Made by a program: the position numbers and the translations under genes. From an uncultured Acidobacteriaceae bacterium (GTDB lineage Bacteria; Acidobacteriota; Terriglobia; Terriglobales; Acidobacteriaceae), in contig CAVPTB010000003.1 of assembly GCA_963708575.1 (NCBI GenBank), forward strand, positions 44,379 to 108,378: a stretch of 64,000 nt of DNA, given 5' to 3'. Below the pieces are notes generated by a model that ran no database searches, was not told where the DNA came from, and worked only from the letters and a program-made list of their open reading frames with translations. Numbering within the stretch: position 1 is the first letter of the stretch; the number at the start of each line of letters is the position of its first letter. This document shows, piece by piece, positions 3,445 to 63,080 of this stretch.

Positions 3445-3580
3445 GAAGGCAAAAGCTATTACGACAAGGACACAGAAGCACGAGGCAAGATCAAGACTTT
3501 CACCACAAAGGACACTAAGGGAACACGAAGGAAGATCAAGGCCCCCCCCAGGGAACAGAGGGCGCGGAGGAATGCAGGTT
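3445..3580 (+). repeat. Family-1 intergenic repeat array (about 3 degenerate ~45-nt units; core CTTTCACCACnAAGGACACTAAGGrrCACGAAGGA)
   Basis: Contains ...ctttcaccacaaaggacactaagggaacacgaaggaagatcaagg..., purine-rich and T-poor on the plus strand. Lies between the convergent stops of the hydrolase and vapC. Confidence 0.8.
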
Positions 3581-3583
3581 AGG

Positions 3584-4000
3584 CTAGGCGAAGGGATTTT
3601 CAATTCGTATGCCGGCGATCAATTGTTGGGCATTCATATCTTCCGAAAGAATTCGCGTGGCTCCGGCTTTGGCGGCGGAGGCGACGATCAAGGCGTCCCA
3701 AAAACTGATGCGAGCTTCGTCCTCCAGGCGGAAGGCTACGGAGATCTCGGCTGAAGTTGTCTCGGTGGACCAGATGGAATAACTGTTGACCACGAGGCGG
3801 GCCACGTCTTTCGGCAGGGGCGCGGCGAATTTCCGAGTTACGTTCACATAGAACTCTTGCAACACTTGCGGGCTGAGAACGCCGGTGCGCTCGGTCCACA
3901 AAGTTCGCAGGACGGTTTTCGCGGCTTCATGCTTTGTCTTAGCGTCGGCGTCGTGAGCATAGATCAGGACGTTGGTGTCGACGAAGGTTCTATCGCTCAT
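3584..4000 (-). CDS. vapC: Type II toxin, PIN-domain ribonuclease VapC
   Basis: 138 aa, N-terminus FVDTNVLIYAHD (PIN acidic motif). 11-nt overlap with the upstream small antitoxin gene. Confidence 0.9.
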   Translation of the reverse strand: MSDRTFVDTNVLIYAHDADAKTKHEAAKTVLRTLWTERTGVLSPQVLQEFYVNVTRKFAAPLPKDVARLVVNSYSIWSTETTSAEISVAFRLEDEARISFWDALIVASAAKAGATRILSEDMNAQQLIAGIRIENPFA

Positions 4001-4226
4001 GCCATTGGTCGCGAGAGGCGGAAATCAGACCTCCGAGGTGAAAGCCTTGATCGAGCAGAGCCATGGCTTGGCGCTCAGCCCGTTCATAGGCCTCTTCCTC
4101 GCCTACCAAGAGCTCAATCTGCTGCGCCAGGAGGCCGGTAATGGAGGTCTCGCGCCTTGCGGCCAGGATCTTGGCTTTGCGGATCGTTTCTTTTGTCAGG
4201 CTAATCGTTATATTTTGCTTATACAT
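3990..4226 (-). CDS. vapB: Type II antitoxin (ribbon-helix-helix-like, VapB)
   Basis: 78 aa. N-terminal beta-strand/helix pattern NITISLTKETIRKAKILAARRETSITGLL. Overlaps vapC. Confidence 0.8.
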   Translation of the reverse strand: MYKQNITISLTKETIRKAKILAARRETSITGLLAQQIELLVGEEEAYERAERQAMALLDQGFHLGGLISASRDQWHER

Positions 4227-4236
4227 ACTGATATAT

Positions 4237-4270
4237 CACGTATATTACGTGTAACACGTTTTATGCGTGT
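4237..4270 (-). promoter_or_regulatory. Candidate vapBC operator: two ACGT-centred inverted repeats
   Basis: CACGTA-tat-TACGTG (4237-4251) and ACACG-N7-CGTGT (4254-4270), 11-44 nt upstream of the vapB ATG. A TTGACG hexamer lies just upstream on the minus strand. Confidence 0.4.
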
Positions 4271-4290
4271 TCGTCAAGTGCAGGTAAGGT

Positions 4291-4432
4291 CAAAGGCTTT
4301 CACCACCAAGGACACTAAGGGGCACGAAGGACAATCAAAAGCGTTACCACAGGGACACGGAGGAGCACGGGGTGGATCGGATGGCCTTTGCCGCCGAGAA
4401 CGCTAAGGAGCACGAAGGAGGATCAAGGGTTT
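4291..4432 (+). repeat. Family-1 intergenic repeat array (3 units), same orientation as 3445-3580
   Basis: Contains caaaggctttcaccaccaaggacactaaggggcacgaaggacaatc... and gcctttgccgccgagaacgctaaggagcacgaaggaggatcaaggg. Ends 12 nt before the hom stop codon. Confidence 0.8.
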
Positions 4433-4443
4433 GTCGTCGAGGG

Positions 4444-5712
4444 TTAGTCGGCGACACGCAGGATCAGGGTCCTGCCTTTCGGTTCGAGTTCGCTGACTTT
4501 CGGAAGTGCGGCGTCGATTTTTTCGCGGGAACCGGCGTGAGTCAGGATTCTTACCTGATGTTGGGTGGAGTTTCCTTTGGCCCATACGGCGGCGGCGCGG
4601 GCAACTTCGACTCCGTTGCGTTCGAGGACAGTGGTGATTGGCCCGATGGCGCTGGGATCGCCTACTTCGAAACGGAGATAGTGCTTGCTGGCGTAGTCGC
4701 GTTTGCTGGCCCCGATGTTGTTTTCCTGGACGGGACGGAATCCGCCTTGATGGCAGGCGATGTCGACCACGTCGGAGAGAACCGCGCTGGCACTGGGCAG
4801 CGGGCCTGCACCTTTACCGCAGAAGAGCATCTCGCCGACGGCGTCGCCGCGCAAGAGTACGGCATTGTTCTCGTTGCGGACGGAAGCGAGTTGATGAGCT
4901 TGCGGGAGAAGCACTGGCGCAGCACGAAGCGCGACCGAGTTATCGGATAGTTCGGCGGTGGCGATGTGCTTGATGACGTATCCGAGATCGGCAGCGGCCT
5001 GGACGTCATCGGCGGTGATTCCGGAGATACCTTCGACCTGCACCATGTCGTTGGCGACCTGGGCGTCGAAGGCAAGCTCGGCAAGGATTTTAAGTTTCTG
5101 CGCGGCGTCGTGGCCTTCCACGTCGAGTGTGGGGTCGGCCTCGGCAAAACCCTTGGCTTGGGCCTCACGCAAGGCAGCATCGAAACCGAGCTGGTCGTCC
5201 GTCATGCGGGTGAGAATGTAGTTGCAAGTGCCGTTTAAAATCCCGCTGAGGCTCTGGATGTTATTTCCCACCAGGCCATTGCGCAGGGCGCGAATGATGG
5301 GAATGCCGCCGCAAACGCTGGCTTCAAATCCCAAGCGCAGGTTGGCGGTCTCGGCAGTTTTCATCAAGGCGAAACCGTCGAGCGCGAGCAAGGCTTTGTT
5401 GGCGGTGACCACGTGTTTGCCACCGGCCAAAGATTCCTGAATGAAGCTACGGGCAGGCTCGATTCCGCCGACGAGTTCGACGACCAGGTCGCAACCATTC
5501 TGCAGGACTTTGGACGGATTGGTAGTGAGCAGAGCGGGATCGACTCCGGGACGCTCCTTGGCGAGATCGCGAACCAAAATCCGGGTAATGCTCAGGTCGA
5601 CACCAGAACGCTGACGAATCAGGGAGACATTCCGGCTAACAAGCTCAACCAAGCCGCGTCCCACGTTGCCGCAGCCGAGCAATCCGATTTTTAGTTTGCG
5701 TACCGCCATCAA
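4444..5712 (-). CDS. hom: Homoserine dehydrogenase
   Basis: 422 aa. NAD-binding N-terminus KIGLLGCGNVGRG, catalytic-domain motifs, C-terminal ACT-like domain. Confidence 0.95.
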   Translation of the reverse strand: MMAVRKLKIGLLGCGNVGRGLVELVSRNVSLIRQRSGVDLSITRILVRDLAKERPGVDPALLTTNPSKVLQNGCDLVVELVGGIEPARSFIQESLAGGKHVVTANKALLALDGFALMKTAETANLRLGFEASVCGGIPIIRALRNGLVGNNIQSLSGILNGTCNYILTRMTDDQLGFDAALREAQAKGFAEADPTLDVEGHDAAQKLKILAELAFDAQVANDMVQVEGISGITADDVQAAADLGYVIKHIATAELSDNSVALRAAPVLLPQAHQLASVRNENNAVLLRGDAVGEMLFCGKGAGPLPSASAVLSDVVDIACHQGGFRPVQENNIGASKRDYASKHYLRFEVGDPSAIGPITTVLERNGVEVARAAAVWAKGNSTQHQVRILTHAGSREKIDAALPKVSELEPKGRTLILRVAD

Positions 5713-5784
5713 TCACGTCCTTCAGAATTTCAGGGCCCACTCTAAACGCAAAGAGCGCGTTGAGAGTGGGGCATCCAAACCAGG

Positions 5785-6066: not shown

Positions 6067-7336
6067 TTACGCCTCCACCGTTTCCGGAATTTCGCTTTCG
6101 CGACGATCCAAAGTGTTTGCCAGGAATGCTTCGAAATCAGCCAAGCGCGGCCGGATGGGCTCGGCCGACTGGTATTTGCCTTCGAGAACGTCGGTGGTTT
6201 TCAGGCCGTTGCCAGTGATGCAGAGGACTGTGGTCTCCTGGGGAGAGATCCGGCCTTGTTCGTAAAGCTTGCGGGCGCAGCCCACGGTAACGCCGCCGGC
6301 AGTCTCGGTAAAGATGCCTTCGGTTACGGCGAGGAGCTGGATGGACTCGACCACTTCGGGGTCGGAAACATCCTCGGACCAGCCGCCGCTGTTGCGAATC
6401 GTCTTGATGGCGTAGTGGCCGTCCGCGGGATTTCCGATGGCGAGCGAACGGGCGATGGTGGAGGGCTTTTGCGGCTCGATCTCGGCACGCGCCATTTTTA
6501 ACGGCGGTGGAAATCGGCGAACATCCGGTGGCTTGAGCACCGAAAATCTTTACCTGCTTCGGTTCGACCAGGCCGAGGTGGATGAGTTCGTCGAAGGCTT
6601 TCTTGATCTTGGTGATGAGCGACCCGCCGGCCATGGGAACTACGACGTTGTCGGGCAAGCGCCAACCGAGTTGCTCGGCGATTTCGTAGCCGACGGTCTT
6701 CGATCCCTCGGCGTAGTAAGGCCGGAGGTTGACGTTGACGAATCCCCAATTGCGCTCGTCAGCGATCTGCGAGCAGAGGCGATTCACCTGATCGTAGCTA
6801 CCGGCAATGCGGACGAGATTCGCGCCAAAAACCTGAGTGCCTAAAATCTTGGCGGGCTCAAGATCGGCGGGAATGAAGATCCAGGCCTTGAATCCATTGC
6901 GGGCAGCCTGCGCGGCAACAGAGTTGGCAAGGTTTCCGGTAGAAGAGCACGCGACGGTGTCGAAGCCGAAGGCGCGGGCCTGCGACAATGCGACTGCGAC
7001 CACGCGATCTTTAAAACTCAGGGTGGGCATGCAGACGGCGTCGTTCTTCACGTAGAGATTGGTTGAGCCGATGGACTTGGCTAACTGCGGAGCGCACAGG
7101 AGTGGCGTGAACCCGGCGGGAACGCTGGGCTGGTAGTTCTCCGGTAATGGCAGCAGCTCGGAGTATCGCCACATATTGGGGGCGCGTGAGGCGATGTGTT
7201 CACGAGTGAACGTGGCACGCACCGCGTCATAGTCGTAGAGAACTTCAAGGGGGGAGAAACAATCGTCACAAATCGACCGGGGCTGATTGCCCCAGTTCTT
7301 GCCACATTCCCGGCAACGCAATTCGTAATGAGCCAT
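6067..7336 (-). pseudogene. Threonine synthase-like PLP enzyme with N-terminal zinc ribbon, frame-disrupted (or indel error)
   Basis: ORF 6137-7336 (CRECG...CDDC zinc ribbon, PLP-lysine motif PTLSFKDR, ...GCSPISTAVKNG) continues in ORF 6067-6540 in another frame (ARAEIEPQKPSTIARSLAIGNPADGHY...). The junction is at the A5 run (plus-strand T5 at 6495-6499). Confidence 0.85.
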
Positions 7337-7440: not shown

Positions 7441-7474
7441 ATCGGAATGCAAAAATAAAGCTCGCATCCGAATC

Positions 7475-7581
7475 TCATGTACCCTGTTTCCAGGAGAGAG
7501 TTGGCACCTGCAACCGGAATGTATGATCCCGGATCGGTTGCCGTGGCGTCATAGGGCTCGTCCCTCAGCCACTCTGCATGA
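7475..7581 (-). promoter_or_regulatory. SAM-I (S-box) riboswitch aptamer
   Basis: Minus-strand RNA UCAUG-CAGAG-UGGCUGAGGGACGAGCCCUAUGACGCCAC-GGCAACC...GGUUGC-AGGUGCCAA-CUCUCUCCUG-GAAA-CAGGGUA-CAUGA. It has P1 UCAUG/CAUGA, the conserved GAGGGA, GCCC, AUGA, GGCAACC and GGUGCCAA blocks, and P4 with a GNRA loop. Confidence 0.75.
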
Positions 7582-7619
7582 AATTCAGGTTTGCTCCGAA
7601 GAGCAAACTTGTTCACATG

Positions 7620-7828: not shown

Positions 7829-8953
7829 TTACTTGGTGTTGAGCATGATGGCGACTTTGCCCTTGTCCCAGATAGGGATGGCTAGGTCGGGGGCGCCGTC
7901 GTGGTTGAAGTCGCCGGAGGCAATCGACATCCCACCCGTAAAGTCGATGGTTTCATTGAACGGATGCGCGGGGCCGAATCCTCCCTTGCCATCGCCATAG
8001 AAGAGATACGAATCGTCTGTGTTTGGCACACAAGCAACGTCCAGTTTGTTATCTAGGTTAAAGTCTGCCACTACGCAAGCCTCCGGCGCATAGCAATTGT
8101 TGCATTCGGGAAAATGGAAGTTTGGTTTTCCGAATGTGCCATCGCCATTGTTCAAGAGCACGACCATGGCCTGAGACGAATCGGCAAGTACTAAGTCCTG
8201 TTTGCCGTTATTTCGCAGATCTGCGACTTCAACATCAGATATCCCGCCCCCGCCGGCGTCGTAGTTTATCGGGGTATTGAACTTCCCGCTGCCATCGTTC
8301 AACAATATGGAAACATATCCGCTGATGTTAGTCACCGCCAGATCGGGGTGTTTATCTCCATTTAGATCGGCAGCCGCCACTGCCCAAGGCGTTCGTCCCA
8401 GCTTGTACTTCACAGGTTTCTGTTTGAGTTTGCCAGTTCCCGTACCCATGAAAACCGTCACATAACCGCCATTGGCGGCTATCGCCAGATCTACATTGCC
8501 GTCCCCATTGAAGTCTGCGGTTGCTACCCCGGTAGGTTCAACTCCGGCTTTGTAGGATGCCGATTGTTTAAACTTTCCCGTCCCGTCCCCCAAAAAGATA
8601 GCAACGGTGCCCTCCCCGCTGCCAGTGTACTCAACCACCGCTAAGTCCTGATTGCCATCGCCATTGAAGTCAGCGACCGCTAAAGCAAGCGGACTTTGGA
8701 CTGGAAAGTGGATAGGTTTTTGAAAAGTTCCGTCGCCATTCCCCAAGAGGATTCTGACATCATTTCCAGCAAAACCGGCAATCGCAATATCAAGGTTGCC
8801 ACTTGGGGTAAAGCTATCGACAACTATGCCATATAGCAGATCGCGGGAGTTCACAGCGTAGTAAGCCGGCCGCCGGAACTGTCCAGCAGAGGCCAAGGTT
8901 GATGCAAAGATTACAGCCAAAACCGTTCTCAACACCGAATTCACGCGTGCCAT
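7829..8953 (-). CDS. Secreted FG-GAP/VCBS repeat protein (tandem paralog B)
   Basis: Signal peptide MARVNSVLRTVLAVIFASTLASAGQ and repeated ADFNGDGNxDLAV / DLNGDKHPDLAV FG-GAP motifs. About 90 percent identical by eye to the upstream gene. Confidence 0.85.
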   Translation of the reverse strand: MARVNSVLRTVLAVIFASTLASAGQFRRPAYYAVNSRDLLYGIVVDSFTPSGNLDIAIAGFAGNDVRILLGNGDGTFQKPIHFPVQSPLALAVADFNGDGNQDLAVVEYTGSGEGTVAIFLGDGTGKFKQSASYKAGVEPTGVATADFNGDGNVDLAIAANGGYVTVFMGTGTGKLKQKPVKYKLGRTPWAVAAADLNGDKHPDLAVTNISGYVSILLNDGSGKFNTPINYDAGGGGISDVEVADLRNNGKQDLVLADSSQAMVVLLNNGDGTFGKPNFHFPECNNCYAPEACVVADFNLDNKLDVACVPNTDDSYLFYGDGKGGFGPAHPFNETIDFTGGMSIASGDFNHDGAPDLAIPIWDKGKVAIMLNTK

Positions 8954-8967
8954 TTCGATCATTCTAA

Positions 8968-10092
8968 CTATTTCGCGTTGATCATGACGGCGACCTTGCC
9001 TTTGTCCCAGATGGGAATCGCCAAGTCGGGGGCTTCATCGTGGTTGAAGTCGCCCACAGCAATCGACATCCCTCCATGGAAATCTATAGTCTCATTGAAG
9101 GGATGCGCCGGGCCGAATCCTCCCTTGCCATCGCCATAAAAGAAATAAGAATCATCTATGTTTGCCACGCAAGCAACATCAAGTTTGCCATCTAAATTAA
9201 AGTCCGCTACCAAGCAAGCCTCTGGCCCTACACAATTCTTGCACTTGGGGAAATGAAACTGGGGTTTGCCAAAGGTGCCGTCTCCATTGTTCAAGAGCAC
9301 GACCATGGCCTGAGAAGTGTCGGCGAGCACTAGGTCCTGCTTGCCGTTGTCACGCAGATCTGCAACTTTGACGTCAGAAGTCGCCCCCCCTCCTGCATCG
9401 TAATTTACTGGAGTAGCGAACTTCCCGCTGCCATCGTTCAACAATATGGAAACATATCCGCTGATGTTAGTCACCGCCAGATCGGGGTGTTTATCTCCAT
9501 TTAGATCGGCAGCCGCCACTGCCCAAGGCGTTCGTCCCAGCTTGTACTTCACAGGTTTCTGTTTGAGTTTGCCAGTTCCCGTACCCATGAAAACCGTCAC
9601 ATAGCCGCCATTGGCGGCGATCGCCAAATCTACGTTGCCGTCCCCATTGAAGTCTGCGGTTGCTACCCCTGTAGGCTCTACTCCGGCGTTGTAGGAAGCC
9701 GATTGCTTGAATTTTCCCGTCCCATCCCCCAAGAAGATGGCGATGTTGCCTTGACCGCTGCCGGTGTACTCAACCACTGCTAAATCCTGATTGCCGTCGC
9801 CGTTAAAGTCAGCGACCGCTAAAGCAAGCGGACTTTGGACTGGAAAGTGTATAGGTTTTTGAAAAGTTCCGTCGCCATTCCCCAAGAGGATTCTGACATC
9901 ATTTCCAGCAAAACCGGCAATCGCAATATCAAGGTTGCCACTTGGGGTAAAGCTATCGACAACTATGCCATATAGCAGATCGCGGGAGTTCACAGCGTAG
10001 TAAGCCGGCCGCCGGAACTGTCCGGCAGAGGCCAAACTGGAAGCAAAAACTACAGCCAAAACCACCATTAAGACCGAATTCACGCGTGCCAT
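8968..10092 (-). CDS. Secreted FG-GAP/VCBS repeat protein (tandem paralog A)
   Basis: Same architecture. ATG at 10092 is preceded by a GGGGTGA SD. The nominal ORF extends to 10131. Confidence 0.85.
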   Translation of the reverse strand: MARVNSVLMVVLAVVFASSLASAGQFRRPAYYAVNSRDLLYGIVVDSFTPSGNLDIAIAGFAGNDVRILLGNGDGTFQKPIHFPVQSPLALAVADFNGDGNQDLAVVEYTGSGQGNIAIFLGDGTGKFKQSASYNAGVEPTGVATADFNGDGNVDLAIAANGGYVTVFMGTGTGKLKQKPVKYKLGRTPWAVAAADLNGDKHPDLAVTNISGYVSILLNDGSGKFATPVNYDAGGGATSDVKVADLRDNGKQDLVLADTSQAMVVLLNNGDGTFGKPQFHFPKCKNCVGPEACLVADFNLDGKLDVACVANIDDSYFFYGDGKGGFGPAHPFNETIDFHGGMSIAVGDFNHDEAPDLAIPIWDKGKVAVMINAK

Positions 10093-10336
10093 ACTGATCA
10101 CCCCAAAATACTGACGATAGTCTCCGGCCACTGCGGACGGCTGTCAAGGTGAAAGATTTTGCAAGACCTTAAAGGCTTCTTACTTAGACAGGAACCAAGA
10201 CTGTAATTCCAATTTCGTAACAAGACTCATTTTCACGTAGGCATCATGATCCATTTTGATAGCTTGGCCTCAGTCGCAAGCTGAATTAGCGACTCTCCGT
10301 TTGCCGCCAAACTGTTCACTCTAAAAATTGGAGACA

Positions 10337-18327: not shown

Positions 18328-18364
18328 GGCGTTCACCGCCGAGAGCGCAGAGGTCGCCGAGACA
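18328..18364 (+). repeat. Family-1-related repeat, GC-rich variant (GGCGTTCACCGCCGAGAGCGCAGAGGTCGCCGAG), copy 1
   Basis: Direct repeat of 18440-18470. Reverse complement of 18911-18944 with one mismatch. Confidence 0.8.
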
Positions 18365-18438
18365 ATCATTTATAAAGGCTTTCGCTGAACTTCGTCTCAG
18401 GACTCTTTTCCATTCCTCGTTCTTATCCGCCGTTCCAG

Positions 18439-18475
18439 AGCGTTCACCGCCGAGAGCGCAGAGGTCGCCGCGACA
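18439..18475 (+). repeat. Same repeat, copy 2, 21 nt below the GxxExxY stop
   Basis: gcgttcaccgccgagagcgcagaggtcgccg is identical to copy 1 over 31 nt. Confidence 0.8.
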
Positions 18476-18495
18476 AATAACCCAGAAGGTGCTTC

Positions 18496-18909
18496 TCAGT
18501 TCCGCATCAAGGTCGAGTCGGGGAATTCGTTCACTATTCCTTTCAGACCGTCTTTCAAGATGCGCACGTGAGAGTTGAGTAACAGTCCGACCCGTTTACC
18601 CGACAGCTTAAGGTACGAAAGCAACTGCGCATCGTGAATCGGCGCAAGGTGCTCGATCGCTTTGACCTCCACGATGACCGAATCATCGACCAGCAAATCC
18701 AGCCGATACCCGCAATCCAGTTTCACTTGCTTGTAAGTTATCGGCAATGGCAGTTGTTGTTCCACCTTGAAGCCAAGCTCACGCAATTCATACGCCAGGC
18801 AGACCTCGTATGCTGATTCGAGGAGGCCCGGCCCAAGAGCCTTATGCACCTCGGCTGCCGCGCCAATGATGCCTCGGGTGATCGAGTCGAGCCTGTTCTT
18901 TTCTTCCAT
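18496..18909 (-). CDS. GxxExxY protein (PD-(D/E)XK nuclease-like; family known from 23S rRNA intervening sequences)
   Basis: 137 aa. ...GPGLLESAYEVCLAYEL (GxxExxY), ...DLLVDDSVIVEVKA (D...ExK). Confidence 0.9.
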   Translation of the reverse strand: MEEKNRLDSITRGIIGAAAEVHKALGPGLLESAYEVCLAYELRELGFKVEQQLPLPITYKQVKLDCGYRLDLLVDDSVIVEVKAIEHLAPIHDAQLLSYLKLSGKRVGLLLNSHVRILKDGLKGIVNEFPDSTLMRN

Positions 18910-18910
18910 C

Positions 18911-18944
18911 CTCGGCGCCCTCTGCGCTCTCGGCGGTGAACGCC
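18911..18944 (-). repeat. Same repeat, inverted copy, filling the gap between the asnS stop and the GxxExxY start
   Basis: The reverse complement of ctcggcgccctctgcgctctcggcggtgaacgcc is ggcgttcaccgccgagagcgcagagggcgccgag. Confidence 0.8.
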
Positions 18945-18945: not shown

Positions 18946-20269
18946 CTACGGATACAGCCGGTTCAGCGTTCTGGGGAACGGAATGGTTTCTCGGACATGC
19001 TCCAAGCCGCAGATCCAGGCCACGGCGCGCTCAATGCCCATGCCGAAACCGGCGTGGGGAACGCCGCCAAATTTTCGCAGGTCGAGATACCAGTTGAAGG
19101 CTTCTTCGGGCAAGCCATGTTCGTGAATGCGCTGGAGGAGCAGGTCGTAGGACGCCATACGCTGCGATCCTCCGATAATTTCTCCGTAGCCTTCGGGGGC
19201 CAGAACATCGACACAGAGCGCAAGGTCCGGGACGTTTCGGATCGGGCTCCATGTAAAACGCTTTGACCTTGGCGGGATAGCGATGCACCATCACCGGCTT
19301 GTCGAATTGCGAGGAGATGTAAGTTTCGTCGGGCGAGCCGAGGTCTCCGCCCCATTCAAAATTGTTTTCGAGCGCACCTTTGGCGTGGGCGTCTTGCAGC
19401 ATCTTGACGGCCTCGTCGTAGGTGATGCGAGGGAACGGGGCCTCGATCTTTTCCAGCTTCGCAACATCGCGGCCGATAGTCTGCAGGTCGGGACGGCGCT
19501 TTTCGAGGCAGCGCTTGACGATGAAGCTGATGAAGTTCTCGGCGAGTTCCATGATGTCGTCGAGTTCGCCGTACGCGACCTCGGGTTCGACCATCCAGAA
19601 TTCGGTGAGGTGACGGCGGGTCTTGGACTTTTCCGCGCGAAACGTGGGTCCGAAAGAATAGACCTTGCCCAGTGCCATAGCGGTTGCTTCGATATAGAGC
19701 TGGCCGGATTGAGTGAGGAAAGCCTGTTCCTCGAAGTAATCGACGGGGAATAGCGTCGTGGTGCCTTCGCAAGCGGCAGGCGTGAGGATCGGCGGATCGG
19801 TGAGGGTGAAGCCGCGTTCGTCGAAGAAGTCGCGAGCGGCTTTGATGATTTCGGCGCGGACACGCAGGATCGCAGCTTGCCGCAGGGAGCGCACCCAGAG
19901 GTGGCGATGCTCCATGAGGAATTCGGTGCCGTGCTCTTTAGGAGTAATTGGGTAAGGCGTCGATTCCGGGACCCGTTGCACAATCTGGACATTCGATACG
20001 TCGAGCTCGAAGCCCCCGGGGGCGCGTTTGTCAGCCCGAACCTTGCCTTCGACTATGACGCTCGATTCCTGGGTGAGGGTCTTGATGGCGTCGAAGACTT
20101 CGGGAGCGACGGCATTCTTGGGAACGACTCCCTGAATCACTCCGGAGCCATCGCGAAATTGGGGGAAGAGCAATTTGCCACTCTCCCGCAGGTTGTACAG
20201 CCAGCCTCGGATAGTAACGGTCTGGCCATCATGTTTACCGATATCAACGATCGTGGTGACAGGAGACAT
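18946..20269 (-). pseudogene. asnS: Asparagine--tRNA ligase, frame-disrupted (or indel error)
   Basis: ORF 19031-20269 carries class II motifs ([21 protein letters not shown]) up to ...KAFYMEPDP. The C-terminus ([29 protein letters not shown]...[15 protein letters not shown]...[10 protein letters not shown]) is in the frame of ORF 18946-19158. The junction is at about 19222-19245. Confidence 0.9.
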
Positions 20270-20282: not shown

Positions 20283-20412
20283 TTTGTGATTCGATTGAGT
20301 AATTTGTAATCGGCAATTGAGCAATTGGAAAGCGCGCAGTTCAATTACAAATACAGATCGAAAGTCACAGATCTTCCAATTTACCCAATCCAACAATTAC
20401 GCAATCGCCCAA
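20283..20412. repeat. Family-2 AT-rich palindromic repeat (heptamer-like AATTACn units in inverted arms)
   Basis: cgattgagtaatttgtaatcggcaattgagcaattgg ... tcaattacaaatac ... ccaatttacccaatccaacaattacgcaatcg. Lies between the asnS start and the downstream gene stop. Confidence 0.7.
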
Positions 20413-25468: not shown

Positions 25469-25624
25469 TGGGAATCATCCTTTTCTGGTTGAAAGAGTTT
25501 TGTGGGCACACCTCGGGCTTGCCTTCGAGGGTGCGAACCAGAACGCGGGCTAGCGGACGGCAGTCATAGGCAGAGCGCTACGGTATCTTCATTCCGGGGC
25601 AAAGTCAAAAGATTTGAAAAACGG

Positions 25625-25710
25625 GGGCAGAGCTTTTACCACCAAGGACACCAAGGTACACGAAGGGGCAGAAGCTTTTACCACAGGGGGCACGGGGGAT
25701 CACAGAGGTC
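25625..25710 (+). repeat. Family-1 repeat (2 units)
   Basis: gcagagcttttaccaccaaggacaccaaggtacacgaaggggcag / aagcttttaccacagggggcacgggggatcacagagg. Abuts or overlaps the HtrA stop codon. Confidence 0.75.
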
Positions 25711-26848
25711 ACACCTGGTCTCTGGCTTCTCCTAGCGTGACCTGGACTTGCATTTTCTTCTTGGCTCGGTAGATGTCGACTCTCACGGTGTCTCCGGCGC
25801 GGTGCTTGTTCATGATCTGCGCGAGATCCTGCTGGCTTTCGATTTTCTGTTCGTCGATGCCGACGATGAGATCTCCGCCAACCATGATGGGGATGTTGCC
25901 GAGGAAAGCGCGTTCGTTGCCGCCGCGCAGTCCGGCTTTGTCCGCGGCGCCTCCGGGCACGGCTTGGACGATGAGCAGACCATAATCGGCAGCCAGACCC
26001 AACTGGTCCGCGAGATCCGGATCGATGGGAATCGTGCGCACGGAAAGGGCGGGGCGGCGTACCCGGCCAATCGTCAGGAGGTCGTTGATGACAGCTTTGG
26101 CGGTGTTGATGGGTATGGCAAATCCGATGCCGGCGCTCTGGCCGACATTCGACGCGATCATGGTGTTGATGCCGATGACGTCGCCGTGCCAGTTCAGCAG
26201 CGGCCCTCCGGAATTTCCGGGATTGATGGCAGCATCGGTCTGAATGGCTTCATCGATCATCATGCCGTCGGGCTCTTGCACCTGGCGGATCGAGCTAACG
26301 ATGCCGCGAGTCAGCGTTCCAGCGAGGCCGAAGGGATTTCCGATGGCGTAAACTTTCTGCCCTACTTGAAGATTCGTCGAGTCGCCAAGAACCATGGGTT
26401 GCAGGTCGGGAGCCTTGATCTGGATAACTGCGAGATCATGCGATCGGTCGGTACCGACAATATTGGCACGATATTTCTTGCGATTGTGCAGCGTGACTTC
26501 GATCTGCCGGGCCTCGGCGATGACGTGATAGTTGGTGAGAATGTGGCCATCTTTGTCGATGAGAAAGCCGGAGCCTTGACCTTCTTCGGGAACCAGCCCG
26601 TAGAAGAAATCGAAGGTGACTGCCTTCGACGTGATGTTCACGACCGAGCCAATATTCTTTCGGTAGACGCTGATGTTGTTTTGTTCTTCGGCGTCGAGGG
26701 CATCGGTGGTAGCGGCCTGGCTGATTTCGAGCTGCGCCGGATGGCTGACCCAGGTGCCCGGCCAAGTCCGGCCAGCCCGGTAGGTAGTGAAGTAGAAAAA
26801 CGCGCCCGCCAGAACGATGGCAAGAATGATGGGTCGCAGCAGTCTCAT
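25709..26848 (-). CDS. HtrA/DegP-family serine protease with PDZ domain
   Basis: Triad contexts LTNYHVI, DLAVIQI, GNSGGPLLN. C-terminal PDZ. N-terminal TM anchor. Confidence 0.9.
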   Translation of the reverse strand: MRLLRPIILAIVLAGAFFYFTTYRAGRTWPGTWVSHPAQLEISQAATTDALDAEEQNNISVYRKNIGSVVNITSKAVTFDFFYGLVPEEGQGSGFLIDKDGHILTNYHVIAEARQIEVTLHNRKKYRANIVGTDRSHDLAVIQIKAPDLQPMVLGDSTNLQVGQKVYAIGNPFGLAGTLTRGIVSSIRQVQEPDGMMIDEAIQTDAAINPGNSGGPLLNWHGDVIGINTMIASNVGQSAGIGFAIPINTAKAVINDLLTIGRVRRPALSVRTIPIDPDLADQLGLAADYGLLIVQAVPGGAADKAGLRGGNERAFLGNIPIMVGGDLIVGIDEQKIESQQDLAQIMNKHRAGDTVRVDIYRAKKKMQVQVTLGEARDQV

Positions 26849-42611: not shown

Positions 42612-42716
42612 ATGTAATTGGCAATTTGTGATTTGTAATTTGAAACCAAACACACCCAGCCGACAGCCTCTCAGGCGGCCGACTTCAATTACCAATTACA
42701 AATTACCCAATCCCAC
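42612..42716. repeat. Family-2 AT-rich palindromic repeat forming a long imperfect hairpin
   Basis: Left arm ggcaatttgtgatttgtaatttgaa versus the reverse complement of the right arm ggtaatttgtaattggtaattgaag. GC-rich central loop. Confidence 0.7.
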
Positions 42717-42730: not shown

Positions 42731-43291
42731 CTATGCTCGAGACAGATACGTGCCTTCGGCGGTGTCTACTTTGATTTTTTCGCCTTCGTTGATGAAGGGC
42801 GGCACCTGCACGACCAGGCCGGTATCGGTCTTGGCTGGCTTGGTGACGCTGGACGCGGTGGCGCTCTTGAGCCCCGGTTCGGTCTCGACTACGGTCAGAA
42901 TCACGGTCTGGGGCAGTTCGATGCCCACGGCCTTGCCATCAAAGAACTCGACTTTGATTTGCAGGTTGGGTATCAGATAATCCACCGCGTCTCCGAGAGT
43001 ATCTCGTGTGAGGTGAGTCTGCTCGAAGTTGGTCGTGTCCATGAAGTAGTAGCTGTCGCCGTCGGCGTACAGGAATTCCATATCCTGTTCATCGACCTGA
43101 ATCTTTTCGATGGGATCGGGCGAGCGGAAACGGTGCTCGAACATGGCGCCGGTGCGCAGGTTGCGCAGTTTGGCCTGGATGAAGGCGCGCAGGTTGCCCG
43201 GCGTACGGTGCTCGACACTGAACACGGAATGGAGATCATTGTTGTGCTTGATGATCATGCCGGGACGAAGCTGGGTCGCGGGTATAGACAT
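42731..43291 (-). CDS. efp: Elongation factor P
   Basis: MSIPATQLRPGMIIKHNNDLHSV...KPAKTDTGLVVQVPPFI. AAAGGAG SD before the internal ATG at 43291. Confidence 0.95.
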   Translation of the reverse strand: MSIPATQLRPGMIIKHNNDLHSVFSVEHRTPGNLRAFIQAKLRNLRTGAMFEHRFRSPDPIEKIQVDEQDMEFLYADGDSYYFMDTTNFEQTHLTRDTLGDAVDYLIPNLQIKVEFFDGKAVGIELPQTVILTVVETEPGLKSATASSVTKPAKTDTGLVVQVPPFINEGEKIKVDTAEGTYLSRA

Positions 43292-43435
43292 TGCGGAATC
43301 AATCTCCTTTAAATTGCGGGTAGCCGGCGGAAACAGGCGGACTCTTGGTCCCGCCGCACACAAGGCTCAAACAGCTTATTTTACAGGAGTTGAAAAGATG
43401 TGGGAAGGAGGGTCGGACGTTCCTTGGGTACGGGC

Positions 43436-43556
43436 AAAGGGCTCTCACCACCAAGGGCACTAAGGTTGACTAAGGAAATTCGTGGAAGGAATATCCTGGT
43501 CGCTAAGGGCGCTTCGACAAGCTTTAGTCACAAAAGACACTAAGGTTCAGCAAGGC
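43436..43556 (+). repeat. Family-1 repeat array (degenerate)
   Basis: caaagggctctcaccaccaagggcactaaggttgactaagg ... ctttagtcacaaaagacactaaggttcagcaagg. Confidence 0.7.
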
Positions 43557-43614
43557 AGCTAGAATAGGGGAAGACGAATCAAAGATTGAATTCTAATTTC
43601 AATGAGGTGTCTTT

Positions 43615-43908
43615 ATGCGTGAAGGAAAATATGAAGCTTCGCAACGTGGCGGAGTAGGAACAGCGGTTACGTTTTTGTTGATCGGACTGGGTGCGGGCGC
43701 TTTGGTCGGGCTGATGTTCGCTCCCAAGGCCGGGAAGCAGATGCGGAAGGAAATGCGCAAGCGGTATGACGATGCGCGCGAGAATCTGGGCGACTGGGCG
43801 GATGACGCCAAGGACGTAGCCGACGAAGTTCTCGAGCGCGGCGCGGAATTAGCGGACGAATTGCGGGAGCGCGTGGCTCCCTTGGCGAAGAATCTGCGGC
43901 GGCGCTAG
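43615..43908 (+). CDS. YtxH domain-containing protein
   Basis: TM segment then FAPKAGKQMRKEMRKRYDDA... Confidence 0.8.
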   Translation: MREGKYEASQRGGVGTAVTFLLIGLGAGALVGLMFAPKAGKQMRKEMRKRYDDARENLGDWADDAKDVADEVLERGAELADELRERVAPLAKNLRRR

Positions 43909-46482: not shown

Positions 46483-46540
46483 AGGCAAGATCTCACCGCA
46501 AAGCTCGCAGAGAGAATCCGCTAAGAACACCAAGGCTCCG
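46483..46540 (+). repeat. Degenerate family-1 unit between convergent stops
   Basis: aagatctcaccgcaaagctcgcagagagaatccgctaagaacaccaaggctcc. Confidence 0.5.
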
Positions 46541-46906
46541 CTATTTTTTGGCTCCGAACATGATGCGATGGCCGTCTGCGGTAACCAGGCCGAATTCCCT
46601 CATGCCCCACGGTTCGTTTCGAATTGCTTTGCAGATCTTGACGCCGGAGGCCACAACCGAGTCGTAAAACGTATCGATCTCGTCGATTTGCAGATAGGCG
46701 AAGTAGGAGTGGTCTCCCAGTTCGCGAGGAGGGATGGCGTCGGGGCACTGCCCGGCCATGATGGTGCATTCGCCCGAGGTGTAGAAGAGCCAGCCAGGGT
46801 CAGGGATGGTATGGACGGTAAAACCTAAAATGTCCCGGTAGAATGCGGCGGAGACTTTCAAATCCGGGACGGCGATCACGAAGCGAGTTGCGGAGATGTT
46901 GGGCAT
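46541..46906 (-). CDS. VOC family (glyoxalase/bleomycin-resistance fold) protein
   Basis: MPNISATRFVIAVPDLKVSAAFYRDILGF... Internal ATG chosen. Confidence 0.8.
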   Translation of the reverse strand: MPNISATRFVIAVPDLKVSAAFYRDILGFTVHTIPDPGWLFYTSGECTIMAGQCPDAIPPRELGDHSYFAYLQIDEIDTFYDSVVASGVKICKAIRNEPWGMREFGLVTADGHRIMFGAKK

Positions 46907-46957
46907 AAGAAATCCAAGGAAGCAGTTGCGGACATTGCCGGGAAGGAATTGCAACCA

Positions 46958-52578: not shown

Positions 52579-52585
52579 GGAATTT

Positions 52586-52784: not shown

Positions 52785-52912
52785 TCTTTCACCTTCCGTG
52801 GTACCCCAAGGCACCCTAATTCGCTTCGTTATCAAGGTTGCCGTTCCCAAGGCGGCGAAAAGCTCAACCACTAAGGGGTCCGAGGGTTGCGCTAAGGACG
52901 CTATAGGGGTTC
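52785..52912 (+). repeat. Family-1 repeat array (degenerate)
   Basis: gtctttcaccttccgtggtaccccaaggcaccctaa ... agctcaaccactaaggggtccgagggttgcgctaaggacgc. Ends about 10 nt from the polA stop. Confidence 0.65.
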
Positions 52913-60462: not shown

Positions 60463-60597
60463 CGTGTGGATAGTTTAGACGAAGAAGGGGCATTGCTCGT
60501 TCACACCAAAGTTACCTATTGGCGTCAGTCGTCGGTCTTCGGCGGGTGGTCGTCGGCTGTCGGTCATGGTTGAAGGGTGAAAGGAATGGGGTCATTT

Positions 60598-61566
60598 ATG
60601 AAAGGAATCCAAGTAAAAATTGTGGGCGGTCCAGAGGCGATGGAACTTGTGGATTTGCCAGTTCCGCAACCTAAGCCGAATGAAGCGGTGGTGAAGTTGG
60701 CGGCGTCGGGAGTGAACTTCATCGATGTTTATCAACGGGAAGGCCGGTACAAGTTGCCGCTGCCATTCGTCCCAGGGCAAGAAGGAGCGGGAACGGTAAC
60801 AGCGATAGGGGCGGAAGTGTCCGGCGTGAAGACCGGGGACCGGGTGGCGTGGGCGTCGGTATTGGGATCTTATGCGGAGTATGCGGCGGTTGCGGCGGAC
60901 CGGCTGGTGGCAATTCCGGAGGGAGTGACCGAGCAGCAGGCTGCGGCAGTGATGCTGCAGGGCATGACCGCGCACTACTTGTGCTACGACACGTTTCCCG
61001 TGAAACGAGGACAAACGGTTCTGGTTCACGCTGCGGCGGGCGGAGCGGGGTCGCTCTTGGTACAGATGGTGCACAACATTGGGGCTCGGGTGATTGGCAC
61101 GGTATCGACGGAAGAAAAGGCCAAGATCGCGCGCGAAGCGGGAGCCGACGAAATTATTTTTTATACCAAGGTTGATTTTGAAGAAGAGACGAAGCGGCTT
61201 ACCGGCGGGAAAGGCGTCGATGTGGTTTTTGACAGCGTAGGCAAAACGACTTTCGAAAAGGGTCTGAACGTGTTGCGACCGCGGGGATACATGGTTTTGT
61301 TTGGGGGATCGAGTGGGGCGGTGCCTCCGTTTGATTTGATTCAGTTGTCGCAGAAGGGATCGTTGTATGTGACGCGACCCACTCTGGTGCAGTACATTGC
61401 CACGCGAGAGGAGCTGGAGAGGCGGTCGGGGGACGTGTTCAAGATGATTCGCGAAGGCAAGCTGAAGGTGAGGATCGCGCATACGTATCCGTTGGCGGAG
61501 GCACGCCGGGCGCATGAGGACCTGGAAGGGCGGAAGACTACGGGAAAGTTGCTGCTGATCCCGTAA
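60598..61566 (+). CDS. qor: NADPH:quinone oxidoreductase (zeta-crystallin-like MDR)
   Basis: MKGIQVKIVGGPEAMELVDLPVP, GVNFIDVY, AAAGGAGS. The nominal GTG at 60577 is an alternative start. Confidence 0.9.
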   Translation: MKGIQVKIVGGPEAMELVDLPVPQPKPNEAVVKLAASGVNFIDVYQREGRYKLPLPFVPGQEGAGTVTAIGAEVSGVKTGDRVAWASVLGSYAEYAAVAADRLVAIPEGVTEQQAAAVMLQGMTAHYLCYDTFPVKRGQTVLVHAAAGGAGSLLVQMVHNIGARVIGTVSTEEKAKIAREAGADEIIFYTKVDFEEETKRLTGGKGVDVVFDSVGKTTFEKGLNVLRPRGYMVLFGGSSGAVPPFDLIQLSQKGSLYVTRPTLVQYIATREELERRSGDVFKMIREGKLKVRIAHTYPLAEARRAHEDLEGRKTTGKLLLIP

Positions 61567-61568
61567 GA

Positions 61569-61982
61569 TCAGATTAAGCGAAGCTCGGAAAAATCTTGCC
61601 TGTATCTGGTGGCATCCAGCGTCATCAGTCGATCCGCGGAGATGGAGGCGTGTGCCGCAATGATGAAATCAGCCGGCAAACGTTTGGGGACTCTCACTTT
61701 GGAGCTACGTCGTCGGTCAGCATAATTTGCGAATGCTTTGGCGGCTCTCAGCCAGACTAATTGCCCGAGATCAAAATCGACCACGATGTTGGTATCGAGC
61801 AGGAATTGATCGACAAAGCTGACGGTAACCTTTGGGTGCGCCAACAGTTCCGCATAGACTGGAGCGGAGATGACAAGTCCACCTTCCGCATAGGCTGAGT
61901 CCAACTGTCCTTCGATCTGGGAGGCGGTGGGTTCACCGGACCAGAGCGCCGAAAGAACACTTGTATCAAGCGCAGTTCTCAC
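61569..61982 (-). CDS. vapC: Type II toxin, PIN-domain VapC
   Basis: ALDTSVLSALW N-terminal PIN motif. 4-nt overlap with the antitoxin gene. Confidence 0.9.
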   Translation of the reverse strand: MRTALDTSVLSALWSGEPTASQIEGQLDSAYAEGGLVISAPVYAELLAHPKVTVSFVDQFLLDTNIVVDFDLGQLVWLRAAKAFANYADRRRSSKVRVPKRLPADFIIAAHASISADRLMTLDATRYRQDFSELRLI

Positions 61983-62230
61983 GAATTCGGCTCTTCGTCG
62001 CGAAGGTCACGCACCCACGCGTTGATCTCTTCAGGACCTTCGGGGAAGGTCCTGAGGACTCCTTTATATTTCTCGAACATTTTGGGAGCGGAACGAGCTG
62101 GACGAATCACAGTCTTGTCATCTTCGATCACGAACTCCACTCGATCACCCGGAGAAAGGCCGAGGCGATGGCGGATTTCCTGAGGCACGGTGACCTGTCC
62201 TTTGGCGCTGATAGAACTGGAGTACTTCAT
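61979..62230 (-). CDS. vapB: AbrB/MazE/SpoVT-family antitoxin (VapB)
   Basis: SAKGQVTVPQEIRHRLGLSPGDRVEF swapped-hairpin motif. Confidence 0.85.
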   Translation of the reverse strand: MKYSSSISAKGQVTVPQEIRHRLGLSPGDRVEFVIEDDKTVIRPARSAPKMFEKYKGVLRTFPEGPEEINAWVRDLRDEEPNS

Positions 62231-62279
62231 TCTTTACCATTATGACATAAAGTAAAGAACTGCGGTAAACCTATCTAAA

Positions 62280-62951
62280 CTACAATATTTTGTTATGCTT
62301 ACGGGAATACCTTATCGCGTATGTCGGAGTCTTTGTGAATTCTGCCAGGCGCGGGTCGTTGATGGGATCTCCGGCGGTTATCTCTAAAGGAATGACTCCG
62401 GCCCAAGTGGGAAATGAGTAGTCCTCTTCGTCGTCGATGGGATCGCCCTGACGAACTTTGGCGGAGAATTCGTCAATCGGCAGACGCAGGACGGAAGTCG
62501 CTTTCAATTCTTTTTCGTTGGGCTGGCGCGACTCGACCCAGCGTCCCGGCAGGATGTGCTCGGAGAGCAGGCGCAGGGCCTCTAACTTTTCTGCGGGGTC
62601 ATCGACCAAAACCGCATTCCCCAAGATCACGACCGAGCGGTAGTTCATCGAGTGATTGAAGATGGAGCGGGCGAGAACCAATCCATCGAGAATGGTGACG
62701 GTCACGCAAACCGGGAGACCGCGATCGAGGTGGCGCAGCATGCGGCTGGCAGCGGATCCGTGAATGTATAAGTTGTCGCCGACGCGTCCGTAGCCAGTGG
62801 GAATGACGAATGGCTGGCCATCGGACACGAAACCGACGTGGCAGATGAAACCTTCGTCGAGGATTTGGTAAGCGGCGGCGCGATCGTAGATGGCTCGTTG
62901 AGGCTCGCGGACGACACGGGTGCGAGCAGTTGGTGCGTTGGATTCGGGCAT
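62280..62951 (-). CDS. Pyridoxamine 5'-phosphate oxidase family (FMN-binding split barrel) protein
   Basis: CHVGFVSDGQPFVIPTGYGRVGDNLYIHGS. Confidence 0.85.
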   Translation of the reverse strand: MPESNAPTARTRVVREPQRAIYDRAAAYQILDEGFICHVGFVSDGQPFVIPTGYGRVGDNLYIHGSAASRMLRHLDRGLPVCVTVTILDGLVLARSIFNHSMNYRSVVILGNAVLVDDPAEKLEALRLLSEHILPGRWVESRQPNEKELKATSVLRLPIDEFSAKVRQGDPIDDEEDYSFPTWAGVIPLEITAGDPINDPRLAEFTKTPTYAIRYSRKHNKIL

Positions 62952-63011
62952 CGCGGAGTGGGCTCCCAGGCAATCGCCAAGAATGTTGAGAGTTTAGCAG
63001 GAAGTGGGAAA

Positions 63012-63080
63012 AGCTTGACACAGAGGACACCGGGTCAAACCTTTCACCACCAAGGACACTAAGGAGCACTAAGGAAGCTT
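63012..63080 (+). repeat. Family-1 repeat
   Basis: gcttgacacagaggacaccgggtcaaacctttcaccaccaaggacactaaggagcactaaggaagc. About 18 nt from the CPBP stop. Confidence 0.75.

Follow-up and report, generated by a model that had tools for sequence, protein, structure and literature searches.

The window analyzed here is a 64,000-nt stretch of DNA from an uncultured Acidobacteriaceae bacterium (GenBank assembly GCA_963708575.1, contig CAVPTB010000003.1, positions 44,379 to 108,378 of the forward strand). Its intergenic regions contain a family of purine-rich repeats with a period of 9-10 nt, termed “arms” here. One inverted set of arms brackets a small gene of the GxxExxY family, which belongs to the PD-(D/E)XK nucleases. 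Judged by sequence, the repeats of the window belong to an arm family that spans more than 10 bacterial phyla, and this family is linked to GxxExxY genes both in physical position and in evolution. An earlier reading, made from the letters of the window without database searches (the “sequence-only reading”), had described the repeats as a dense, strand-asymmetric intergenic family of ca. 45-nt units.

The motif CACNAAGGR was found 15 times in the window (3.5 expected; none of 100 shuffles reached 15), and 14 of these 15 matches were on the plus strand. Repeat finding returned a direct family of eight 46-nt copies, a second, GC-rich family of four copies, and a 34-nt inverted pair (18328-18361 / 18911-18944) with 97% complementarity. 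A hidden Markov model (HMM) trained on the window copies (the “window-trained model”) had eight strong matches, all on the plus strand: 3490-3535, 4288-4334, 4376-4422, 25622-25667, 25667-25711, 43431-43479, 43514-43559, and 63032-63078. These eight significant ca. 45-nt units fall in five intergenic arrays. Other HMMs (the “external models”) were trained solely on arms from other genomes and then run on the window. They recovered 63038-63076, 4293-4330, 3495-3526, 25631-25667, and 43445-43476 (E-values of 4e-8 to 2e-5, all plus), as well as the GC-type arms at 18333-18362 (plus), 18444-18473 (plus), and 18911-18939 (minus). In a gene map whose flanking genes were backed by Pfam/NCBIfam, 100% of the significant copies were intergenic; they occupied 7 of the 45 intergenic regions (ca. 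15%). The features are as follows.

3445-3580, plus: array B, three tandem direct units of ca. 45 nt, each a 35-nt arm with an ATCAAGR spacer; between the stop codons of an alpha/beta-hydrolase gene (2603-3436, plus) and of vapC (3584), neighbors identified by Pfam.
3490-3535, plus: canonical unit of array B (external model E 9e-8); the units on either side are degenerate.
3584-4226, minus: vapBC, with a PIN-domain VapC at 3584-4000 and a small antitoxin at 3990-4226.
4288-4432, plus: array A, three tandem direct units (best external model E 5.5e-8), 12 nt downstream of the hom stop codon (4444) and upstream of the vapB promoter region.
4288-4334, 4344-4369, and 4376-4422, plus: units of array A, respectively canonical, degenerate, and between the AT and GC types.
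18328-18364, plus: distal 3' arm of the GxxExxY gene, GC-type TTCACCGCCGAGAGCGCAGAGGTCGCCGAG, pyrimidine in the sense of the gene (external model E 6.9e-6).
18439-18475, plus: proximal 3' arm, GC-type, 21 nt past the GxxExxY stop codon (external model E 4.3e-5).
18496-18909, minus: GxxExxY gene, 137 amino acids (PF13366 PDDEXK_3, E 1e-38; TIGR04256, E 4e-41), in the “loop” between inverted arms and flanked by asnS and arginase.
18911-18944, minus: 5' arm, GC-type, purine in the sense of the gene, abutting the GxxExxY ATG (external model E 1.5e-5).
25622-25711, plus: HtrA-side array, two tandem direct units (external model E 4e-6), of which 25622-25667 is canonical and 25667-25711 is degenerate (CACAGGGG/CACGGGGG type).
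25709-26848, minus: HtrA-like protease gene, its stop codon overlapped by the last unit of the preceding array.
27613-27634, plus: weak GC-type candidate between coaE and folD (E 0.32, not significant alone).
43431-43559, plus: array between the divergent genes efp (42731-43363, minus) and ytxH-like (43615-43908, plus), with units at 43431-43479 and 43514-43559, 34 nt apart; the first has an external-model E of 2e-5, and the second reaches significance with the window-trained model alone.
46493-46537, plus: weak, degenerate candidate adjoining the stop codon of a VOC-family gene (46541-46954, minus; E 0.6-2, not significant alone).
52859-52876, plus: weak candidate near the polA stop codon (52923; E 3.4, not significant alone).
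63006-63078, plus: CPBP-side copy, the canonical unit 63032-63078 after a degenerate one (external model E 4e-8), ending 20 nt from the stop codon of a CPBP/Rce1-like protease gene (63099-63911, minus).

Most of the sequence-only description was borne out by these data. The density of the family, its confinement to intergenic DNA, the 9-10-nt sub-period, and the ca. 45-nt unit all held, as did the placement of the purine-rich strand on the plus strand in all copies except one, 18911-18944. The inverted GC-rich pair around the GxxExxY gene was likewise real. The list of copies survived in part. Its main arrays and the GC-type copies at 18.3-18.9 kb were recovered by the external models; the entries at 27609-27640 and 46483-46540 matched weakly, and the entry at 52785-52912 was reduced to the weak candidate at 52859-52876. 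A further entry, 31001-31045, had no support from the external models and was not significant with the window-trained model (E 3.9). Most copies had also been placed within about 20 nt of the stop codon of a minus-strand gene. The distances were confirmed for hom (4444), vapC (3584), HtrA (25709), CPBP (63099), and GxxExxY (18496); the array at 43431-43559 is the departure, as it sits between two divergent genes.

In the window, each unit is a ca. 35-nt arm, CTTTCACCAC-N-AAGGACAC-N-AAGGGRCAC-N-AAGGA, plus a spacer of 7-10 nt, and the arrays are tandem and direct, with two or three units each. In general, an arm opens with a TTCACC(R)C head, behind which come three or four 9-nt units of the consensus CRC-N-RAG-R-N. 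The AT-type unit of the window is CAC-N-AAGG-A and the GC-rich unit is CGC-N-GAG, A/G transitions being the sole difference. A single consensus, TTCACC RC N RAG R N CRC N RAG, covers both the CACNAAGG and the GC-rich copies. All four bases are used at the N position, and the other positions of the arm are nearly invariant. The head, TTCACC(A/G)C, was present in all copies, with at least two to three CRC-N-RAG units spaced at 9-10 nt. Unit variants across genomes (CACAGAGG, CGCAGAGG, CACGGAGG, and CGCCGAG) all fit CRC-N-RAG-R-N, and the GC-rich variant of the window is therefore a member of the same family. The sequence-only reading had treated the GC-rich copies at 18.3-18.9 kb as a side variant; they proved to be the key to the family.

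A C8 homopolymer is located at 3544-3551, inside the degenerate third unit of array B. The asnS gene next to the GxxExxY gene (18946-20269, minus) has a single-base frameshift near 19130-19140: residues up to ca. 298 are in one frame and the C-terminal ca. 109 (ending in RLYP and the stop) are in another, and both parts are 81-87% identical to the asnS of a relative. The frameshift is probably an assembly indel; otherwise, asnS is a pseudogene. The homopolymer and the frameshift together suggest that indel errors of the long-read type may affect the fine detail of degenerate units.

The exact 22-mer TTCACCACNAAGGACACNAAGG, to which three window copies are identical, occurred in at least 119 contigs of a collection of one genome per species (596 Gb). 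The chance expectation is ca. 1, by our own arithmetic (20 specified bases in ca. 1.2e12 searched positions). Among the matches listed, the hosts were mostly Acidobacteriota, with Alpha-, Beta-, Gamma-, and Deltaproteobacteria, Chloroflexota, Planctomycetota, Verrucomicrobiota, Lentisphaerota, Chlamydiota, Bacteroidota, Binatia, and Methylomirabilales also represented; cultured hosts among them were Roseiarcus fermentans DSM 24875 and Methylobacter svalbardensis. The 22-mer was also present in 17 viral-contig stretches. That the recognition sequence changes so little between Bacteroidota and Proteobacteria implies strong constraint on a protein-DNA or protein-RNA code.

Loci selected by the 22-mer arm, 856 kb in all, were used as a wider sample. 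They contained 237 arms; shuffled sequence yielded none. The forms comprised ca. 60 purine-first inverted pairs, ca. 10 tail-to-tail pairs, and 98 solo arms. The purine-first pairs are perfect or near-perfect hairpins of 60-200 nt that terminate in GTGGTGAA, and they often have an A-rich 5' flank and, in part, a T-rich 3' flank. Tandem direct arrays like those of the window were present at five other loci (L011, L034, L042, L061, and L112). Plasmids searched with a consensus hairpin gave no match, probably owing to the low-complexity filter. In the window, the arrays folded no better than shuffles on either strand (z of +0.6 to +2.1); a small minus-strand hairpin within 63005-63098 (z -3.1) was the sole exception. 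The sequence-only statement that the copies are not self-complementary, and hence unlike repetitive extragenic palindromic (REP) sequences, bacterial interspersed mosaic elements, or miniature inverted-repeat transposable elements (MITEs), thus stands for the arrays of the window. In other genomes the arm mostly comes with an inverted partner, so the contrast with REPs and MITEs is valid only inside the window.

Two side observations concern the settings of arms in other genomes. Six contigs of 66-68% GC from IMG/VR (L214, L216, L219, L220, L222, and L227) form a (pro)phage-like family in which a hairpin of four-unit arms follows many of the genes, with up to five hairpins per 14 kb, each behind another periodic tract (CAGTGAGA repeats). 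At loci L020 and L112, 7-nt periodic tracts (TGCCGAT repeats) are located directly upstream of the TTCACC head.

Several other identities for the repeats were considered and set aside. A protein-coding reading, with the N of ACN at the third codon position, was rejected because the arms occur in both orientations relative to genes and have flanking stops; the invariance of other synonymous positions also ruled it out. The FopS small RNAs of Bacteroides were dropped, as these are promoter-driven, restricted to Bacteroidaceae, and deposited in Rfam, yet the repeats had no Rfam match. The arrays of the window have no stable stems, and the hairpins elsewhere have only a partial T-rich 3' flank, which speaks against intrinsic terminators. 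An array of clustered regularly interspaced short palindromic repeats did not fit two or three divergent units with 7-10-nt spacers at dispersed loci, and there were no cas genes among the neighbors scanned.

The complete form of the element is a purine arm, a ca. 125-residue PD-(D/E)XK gene (PF13366/TIGR04256), and an inverted pyrimidine arm ending in GGTGAA. The window cassette, 18328-18944, consists of a purine arm, the open reading frame (ORF), and two tandem pyrimidine arms. Two gene samples were examined: the arm-selected loci with the window, and a protein-selected set drawn from plasmids and chromids, viral contigs, and metagenome loci. A profile search of the arm-selected loci yielded four more GxxExxY genes (L017, L061, L093, and L110), all with CACNAAGG-type flanks, so that direct flanking by arms was seen at five of five genes in these loci and the window; another locus (L023) has an apparent decayed copy. 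GxxExxY was the sole recurrent ORF enclosed by arms. The arm-ORF-arm architecture was also displayed by four of the eight protein-selected plasmid or chromid matches (L200-L203). In Bacteroides finegoldii, the cassette reads TTCACCACAGAGGACGCAGAGGACACGGAG - ORF - CTCTGTGACCTCTGTGTCCTCTGTGGTGAA (TTCACCACAGAGGACGCAGAGG ... CTCTGTGTCCTCTGTGGTGAA); the others are in Bernardetia, Sphingomonas (between fabD and fabG), and Gemmatirosa. The single viral-contig relative (L229) was arm-bracketed too, for a total of five of nine plasmid and viral genes with arms. Both arms were present at nearly all of 80 metagenome GxxExxY loci. Most of these represent one syntenic asnS-cassette-arginase site, so that the set amounts to a single ancient insertion and a small number of additional ones.

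Tandem gene pairs or apparent two-domain fusions (265-295 residues with two matched stretches) were found among many GxxExxY relatives. In such paired or fused relatives (P0241-P0248; L160, L170, L175, L180-L182, and L189), a separate pyrimidine arm stands behind each copy. Proteins with a GxGLLES[AT]Y motif (identities of at least ca. 38-55%) had arms of the CRCNRAG type in four phyla, and divergent members from Treponema and Fusobacteria had a different common flank motif, ACACGGATT. In the sequences compared, protein clade and flank type go together.

The GxxExxY family is large (20,900 clusters at 50% identity; more than 7,000 clusters at E<1e-10). A survey (PMC3424549) gives its function as unknown, and in the searchable literature, outside of which most subscription journals lie, GxxExxY/PF13366 was met only as “unknown” or in passing. 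No relatives were found in the PDB by sequence or profile. PADLOC returned only a marginal Cas4 match, and PHROGs returned none.

Conservation was measured by pairwise identity among 21 orthologous cassettes from the asnS site. The amino-acid identity of GxxExxY was 0.82, and that of 4-fold degenerate sites was 0.33, i.e. saturated. The motif positions of the arms had identities of 0.95 (5' arm) and 0.90 (3' arm), compared to 0.61 and 0.54, respectively, for their variable positions. Conservation of the motifs despite saturated 4-fold sites means that the arms are selected or continually homogenized. The variable columns of the 5' and 3' arms were unpaired in 6-17 of 23 sequences, and motif pairs never varied. 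In the ORF-less hairpins, the match at spacer positions was no better than that for independent arms. A model of strict 5'/3' hairpin covariation was dropped, since the variable columns are mostly unpaired and the excess of double changes is weak. With the motif kept and the variable columns mostly unpaired, the constraint falls mainly on the motif within each arm, which points to arrays of short recognition sites rather than to an obligatory pairing structure.

No target-site duplication was detected at 39 inverted-arm elements; 29 of the 39 had none, and the remainder had 1-3 nt, which is the chance level. Upstream of the head there was just a weak A-rich tract at -8 to -4, and a conserved insertion target at that location was accordingly rejected. 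An AAGCTT-like palindrome at the arm head, considered as a cleavage site, was not general (13 or fewer of 230 arms at any center).

The sequence-only reading had proposed that orientation be checked relative to replication and to transcription. In the wider sample, solo arms were oriented toward the locally G-rich strand by 41 to 22 (p 0.02, from the GC skew of 8-kb pieces), and by 21 to 5 where the absolute skew exceeded 0.04 (p 0.0025). No such preference was seen relative to the flanking genes: 28 solo arms were in the (-,-) setting and 27 in the (+,+) setting, with 15 in convergent and 6 in divergent regions. The solo arms are thus without transcription bias and are depleted between divergent genes, and the apparent preference for minus-strand genes did not extend beyond the window. 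The plus strand of the window is G-rich in genes of both orientations, third codon positions included, which by the usual criterion makes it the leading strand. Every solo arm in the window has its purine strand on this strand, which would leave it exposed as the lagging-strand template. Together, the strand bias and the lack of target-site duplication suggest that some step probably takes place on single-stranded DNA at the replication fork.

In relatives whose hom is 77-85% identical, a TetR gene lies directly downstream of hom, and neither the arrays nor vapBC are present there. This absence and the three exact matches to the 22-mer indicate that the arrays are recent gains and not conserved parts of the neighboring genes. 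In the window, arrays A and B lie on either side of vapBC as direct repeats. Upstream of vapB (to 4290) are a 9-nt tandem, TATATCACG x3, and ACGT-rich palindromes, which are probably the antitoxin operator. In one relative (L208), the spacer downstream of hom (4260-4650) carries other repeat types, for example GTCATCCCGAGCGTAGCGAGGGATCTGCAG and GC hairpins that resemble GGCGCGGGCGCCCCCGCCCGCC. Different repeat families seem to collect at this location.

We favor, tentatively and at slightly less than even confidence, a reading in which the repeats of the window are arms, orphan or non-autonomous, that belong to a nuclease-associated cassette, similar to the association of REPs with REP-associated tyrosine transposases (RAYTs), and in which every arm strings together 9-bp sites for recognition by a protein. 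Most plausibly, the GC-type copies at 18328-18944 form the cassette type from which the solo copies derive. The element would exist as the complete cassette, as far commoner ORF-less inverted pairs (hairpins), and as solo or tandem arms. The 9-nt units would be read by the GxxExxY nuclease (most probably) or by a partner. ORF-less arms would be copied or maintained in trans, as REPs and REPINs (paired REPs) are by RAYT transposases, with some step occurring on single-stranded DNA at the replication fork. The CACNAAGG arrays of this Terriglobales genome are recent gains, specific to the lineage, which settle just downstream of stop codons.

A number of observations weigh against this reading. 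Binding or cutting of the arms by GxxExxY is a prediction, based on the co-variation of clade and flank motif and on the conserved motif positions of the arms. The AlphaFold model of GxxExxY is poor (predicted local distance difference test score of 57) and unfit for a fold search. Only ca. 2% of arms adjoin a GxxExxY gene, and the link to the solo arms consequently rests on the sequence family and not on neighborhood. Canonical arms are missing at four of the nine protein-selected plasmid and viral genes. The only GxxExxY gene in the window has arms of the GC type and not of the CACNAAGG type; a cognate CACNAAGG-type paralogue elsewhere in the genome has to be assumed. The gene at the asnS site is vertically inherited and strongly conserved, and in this it looks like a domesticated host gene, not an active mobile element. 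The arms at that site exhibit a weak excess of paired or compensatory double changes (18 cells, compared to 9.3 in shuffles), and there may be some selection for pairing. Finally, the strand bias of the solo arms is moderate.

More doubtful than the derivation of the window repeats is the general form of the proposal. GxxExxY would be the nuclease of a previously unrecognized, pan-bacterial class of repeats; it would read the 9-nt-periodic arms, probably on the single-stranded lagging-strand template, and would copy or maintain hundreds of ORF-less arms per genome. The result would be a PD-(D/E)XK analogue of REP-RAYT with one recognition code across more than 10 phyla. This is possible, and we put it forward with reserve.

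A different division of labor between arm and gene can be drawn from the same architecture. The arms could be an independent host or selfish hairpin family, terminator- or REP-like and served by some other factor, with GxxExxY a homing-type gene that inserts into the loops. The nuclease would then neither create nor maintain the solo copies, and the arms would provide just a landing pad and homology. For every ORF-bearing hairpin there are more than 10 without an ORF, and the ORF is always in the loop position. The A-rich 5' and T-rich 3' flanks of the hairpins resemble those of bidirectional terminators; the GxxExxY genes lie between co-oriented housekeeping genes, as free-standing homing genes do; and at least one homing endonuclease, I-Ssp6803I, has the PD-(D/E)XK fold. 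A mere landing pad, however, would not be expected to have flank types that co-vary with protein clade, nor to keep its motif positions without strict pairing, as the arms at the asnS site do. The solo arrays of the window, moreover, are unable to form terminator hairpins. We regard this account as rather unlikely, but it is the main rival.

Decay was also considered. If the window copies were inert relics, i.e. half-deleted palindromes or MITE-like hairpins tolerated in 3' intergenic space, their orientation on one strand would reflect either chance or the asymmetric deletion of palindromes during replication. Long palindromes are unstable and lose one arm, many of the array units are degenerate, and the arrays are missing in relatives. 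The scarcity of arms between divergent genes is also what purifying selection on promoters predicts. However, three exact copies of the 22-mer, together with absence in relatives, describe a young family and not a decaying one, and the half-deletion of a hairpin does not produce tandem direct arrays of two or three units. The same strand bias recurs in independent genomes, and motif positions are under selection where this could be measured. That the window copies are relics is improbable.

An action as RNA was judged very improbable. On this account, the solo arrays would function in the 3' untranslated regions of minus-strand genes in the manner of Rho-loading (Rho-utilization, or rut) sites; the transcribed strand is C/U-rich, G-poor, and unstructured, with CCUU repeats that resemble the anti-Shine-Dalgarno sequence. 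The 9-10-nt spacing of the pyrimidine patches is compatible with that of Rho primary sites, most window arrays begin within ca. 20 nt of a minus-strand stop codon, and the predicted transcripts are less structured than shuffles (z up to +2.1). The even orientation of solo arms relative to flanking genes in the wider sample (28 to 27) and the window array between divergent genes are contrary to this account. The arm variants extend to Bacteroidota, in which translation does not depend on Shine-Dalgarno pairing, and exact conservation across phyla far exceeds what a rut site needs. Hardly credible is the idea that the arms are polar motifs of chromosome architecture, read on one strand and directed by replication like the FtsK-orienting polar sequences and SpoIIIE recognition sequences (FtsK/SpoIIIE) or Chi (RecBCD/AddAB): the purine strand is biased to the G-rich strand and the units resemble the known purine-rich polar octamers GGGNAGGG and GAGAAGGG, but such motifs pervade coding sequence whereas the window copies are confined to intergenic DNA, the frequent inverted pairs would cancel any polarity, and the arms bracket a nuclease gene.

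If the derivation from a nuclease-associated cassette is true, PF13366/TIGR04256, a large and widespread nuclease family of “function unknown”, would obtain its first functional context. A repeat family would be defined that takes up a substantial part of the intergenic regions of soil Acidobacteriota (ca. 15% of those in the window) and recurs over phyla. The strand bias would add a second case, this one without an HUH enzyme, in which repeat dynamics are coupled to the replication fork. The arm code is testable with oligonucleotides and one purified 15-kDa protein. The arms also create spurious repetitive ORFs (FTTKDTKGHEG, SPRRTRR, and FVSFVV) that pollute protein databases, and a model of the family would allow these to be masked. 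Peptides encoded by arms were found in the N- or C-terminal extensions of 8 of 150 family representatives, a proxy that is too insensitive.

Other features of the window were noted in passing. A second family of periodic arms is found at 42613-42712 and 20293-20400, where hairpin-like inverted arms are composed of 7-nt units (GTAATTG / CAATTAC); one copy, TGTAATTGGCAATTTGTGATTTGTAATTTGAA ... TTCAATTACCAATTACAAATTACCCAAT, is upstream of efp, and a related one is between asnS and the next gene. An S-adenosylmethionine (SAM) riboswitch (RF00162, 7472-7584, minus, 71 bits, E 1e-14) is upstream of the ORF at 6137-7336 (minus), in a region shared with hom and with sulfur/methionine genes of the ThiS/PALP type. 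At 7829-10131 (minus) there are two adjacent paralogues (377 and 387 residues) with 79% identity over 300 nt. They contain a periodic internal repeat of ca. 153-156 nt, which from its appearance may be of the FG-GAP/VCBS type.

The repeats were compared with known systems. At the Rfam gathering threshold, the only match over the window was the SAM riboswitch at 7472-7584, with none to the repeats; at E-values up to 1, eight hairpin-bearing loci gave only generic microRNA-hairpin matches below threshold. Arm sequences, their variants, and arm-encoded peptides were absent from the searchable literature, apart from unrelated primer matches, and a REP-oriented search of it returned nothing relevant. 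The sequence-only reading, which knew of no described function, is in agreement with these searches. An earlier description of the arm family may nevertheless exist.

In overall organization, the family comes closest to REP-RAYT pairs and to MITEs with their insertion sequences. The features in common with REP/REPIN-RAYT systems are short, high-copy intergenic repeats at the 3' ends of genes, a conserved head plus a body, a nuclease gene in a single or few copies between inverted copies of the repeat, no target-site duplication, and a suspected tie to single-stranded DNA and replication. The enclosed gene, however, is PD-(D/E)XK (PF13366) here and an HUH Y1 transposase there, and no Y1_Tnp was found among the genes scanned. 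The head is TTCACC and not GTAG or CGTC. The arms are 30-40-nt arrays of a 9-nt unit with a free position, whereas REPs are simple imperfect palindromes of 20-40 bp; the window lacks such a palindromic unit, and hairpins elsewhere require two separate inverted arms. Solo arms and tandem direct arrays are common here. REPs are species-specific, whereas the present sequence is constant over more than 10 phyla.

Like MITEs and their parent insertion sequences (ISs), the family has an autonomous form (terminal inverted repeats around an ORF, ca. 500-650 bp) and many ORF-less forms (60-200 bp). Terminal inverted repeats are present at 18328-18944 and in the hairpins elsewhere and are missing from the solo and tandem arrays of the window. 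The differences are the lack of a target-site duplication and of a DDE or other known transposase, an ORF of just ca. 125 residues, and the vertical inheritance of one cassette, which strong purifying selection has kept at a syntenic site. Elements of the IS200/IS605 group (IS608 type) also make no target-site duplication, and the replication-orientation bias seen here is consistent with their use of the lagging-strand template. Those elements have no terminal inverted repeats but subterminal hairpins and an HUH transposase; no such gene is present here, and the window copies are hairpin-free. The family thus fails the defining tests of both REP-RAYT and MITE-IS systems, having no palindromic unit in the window, no GTAG head, no HUH or DDE enzyme, and no target-site duplication.

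Two other types of element are similar in part. The ORF-bearing intervening sequences of 23S ribosomal RNA and genes for PF05635 “four helix bundle proteins” feature a small ORF in long inverted repeats, and many copies of such ORFs are scattered among housekeeping genes across the same wide range of phyla. Their protein family is different, and the present elements have no ribosomal RNA context. The short tandemly repeated repetitive (STRR) heptamers of cyanobacteria are intergenic short-period arrays that give rise to spurious repetitive peptides; they are long, simple heptamer arrays, limited to cyanobacteria, with no head, inverted-pair form, or associated gene. Set beside all of these systems, the 9-nt periodic code, the coexistence of solo and tandem forms, the PD-(D/E)XK partner, and the conservation across phyla are the unusual features of the arm family.

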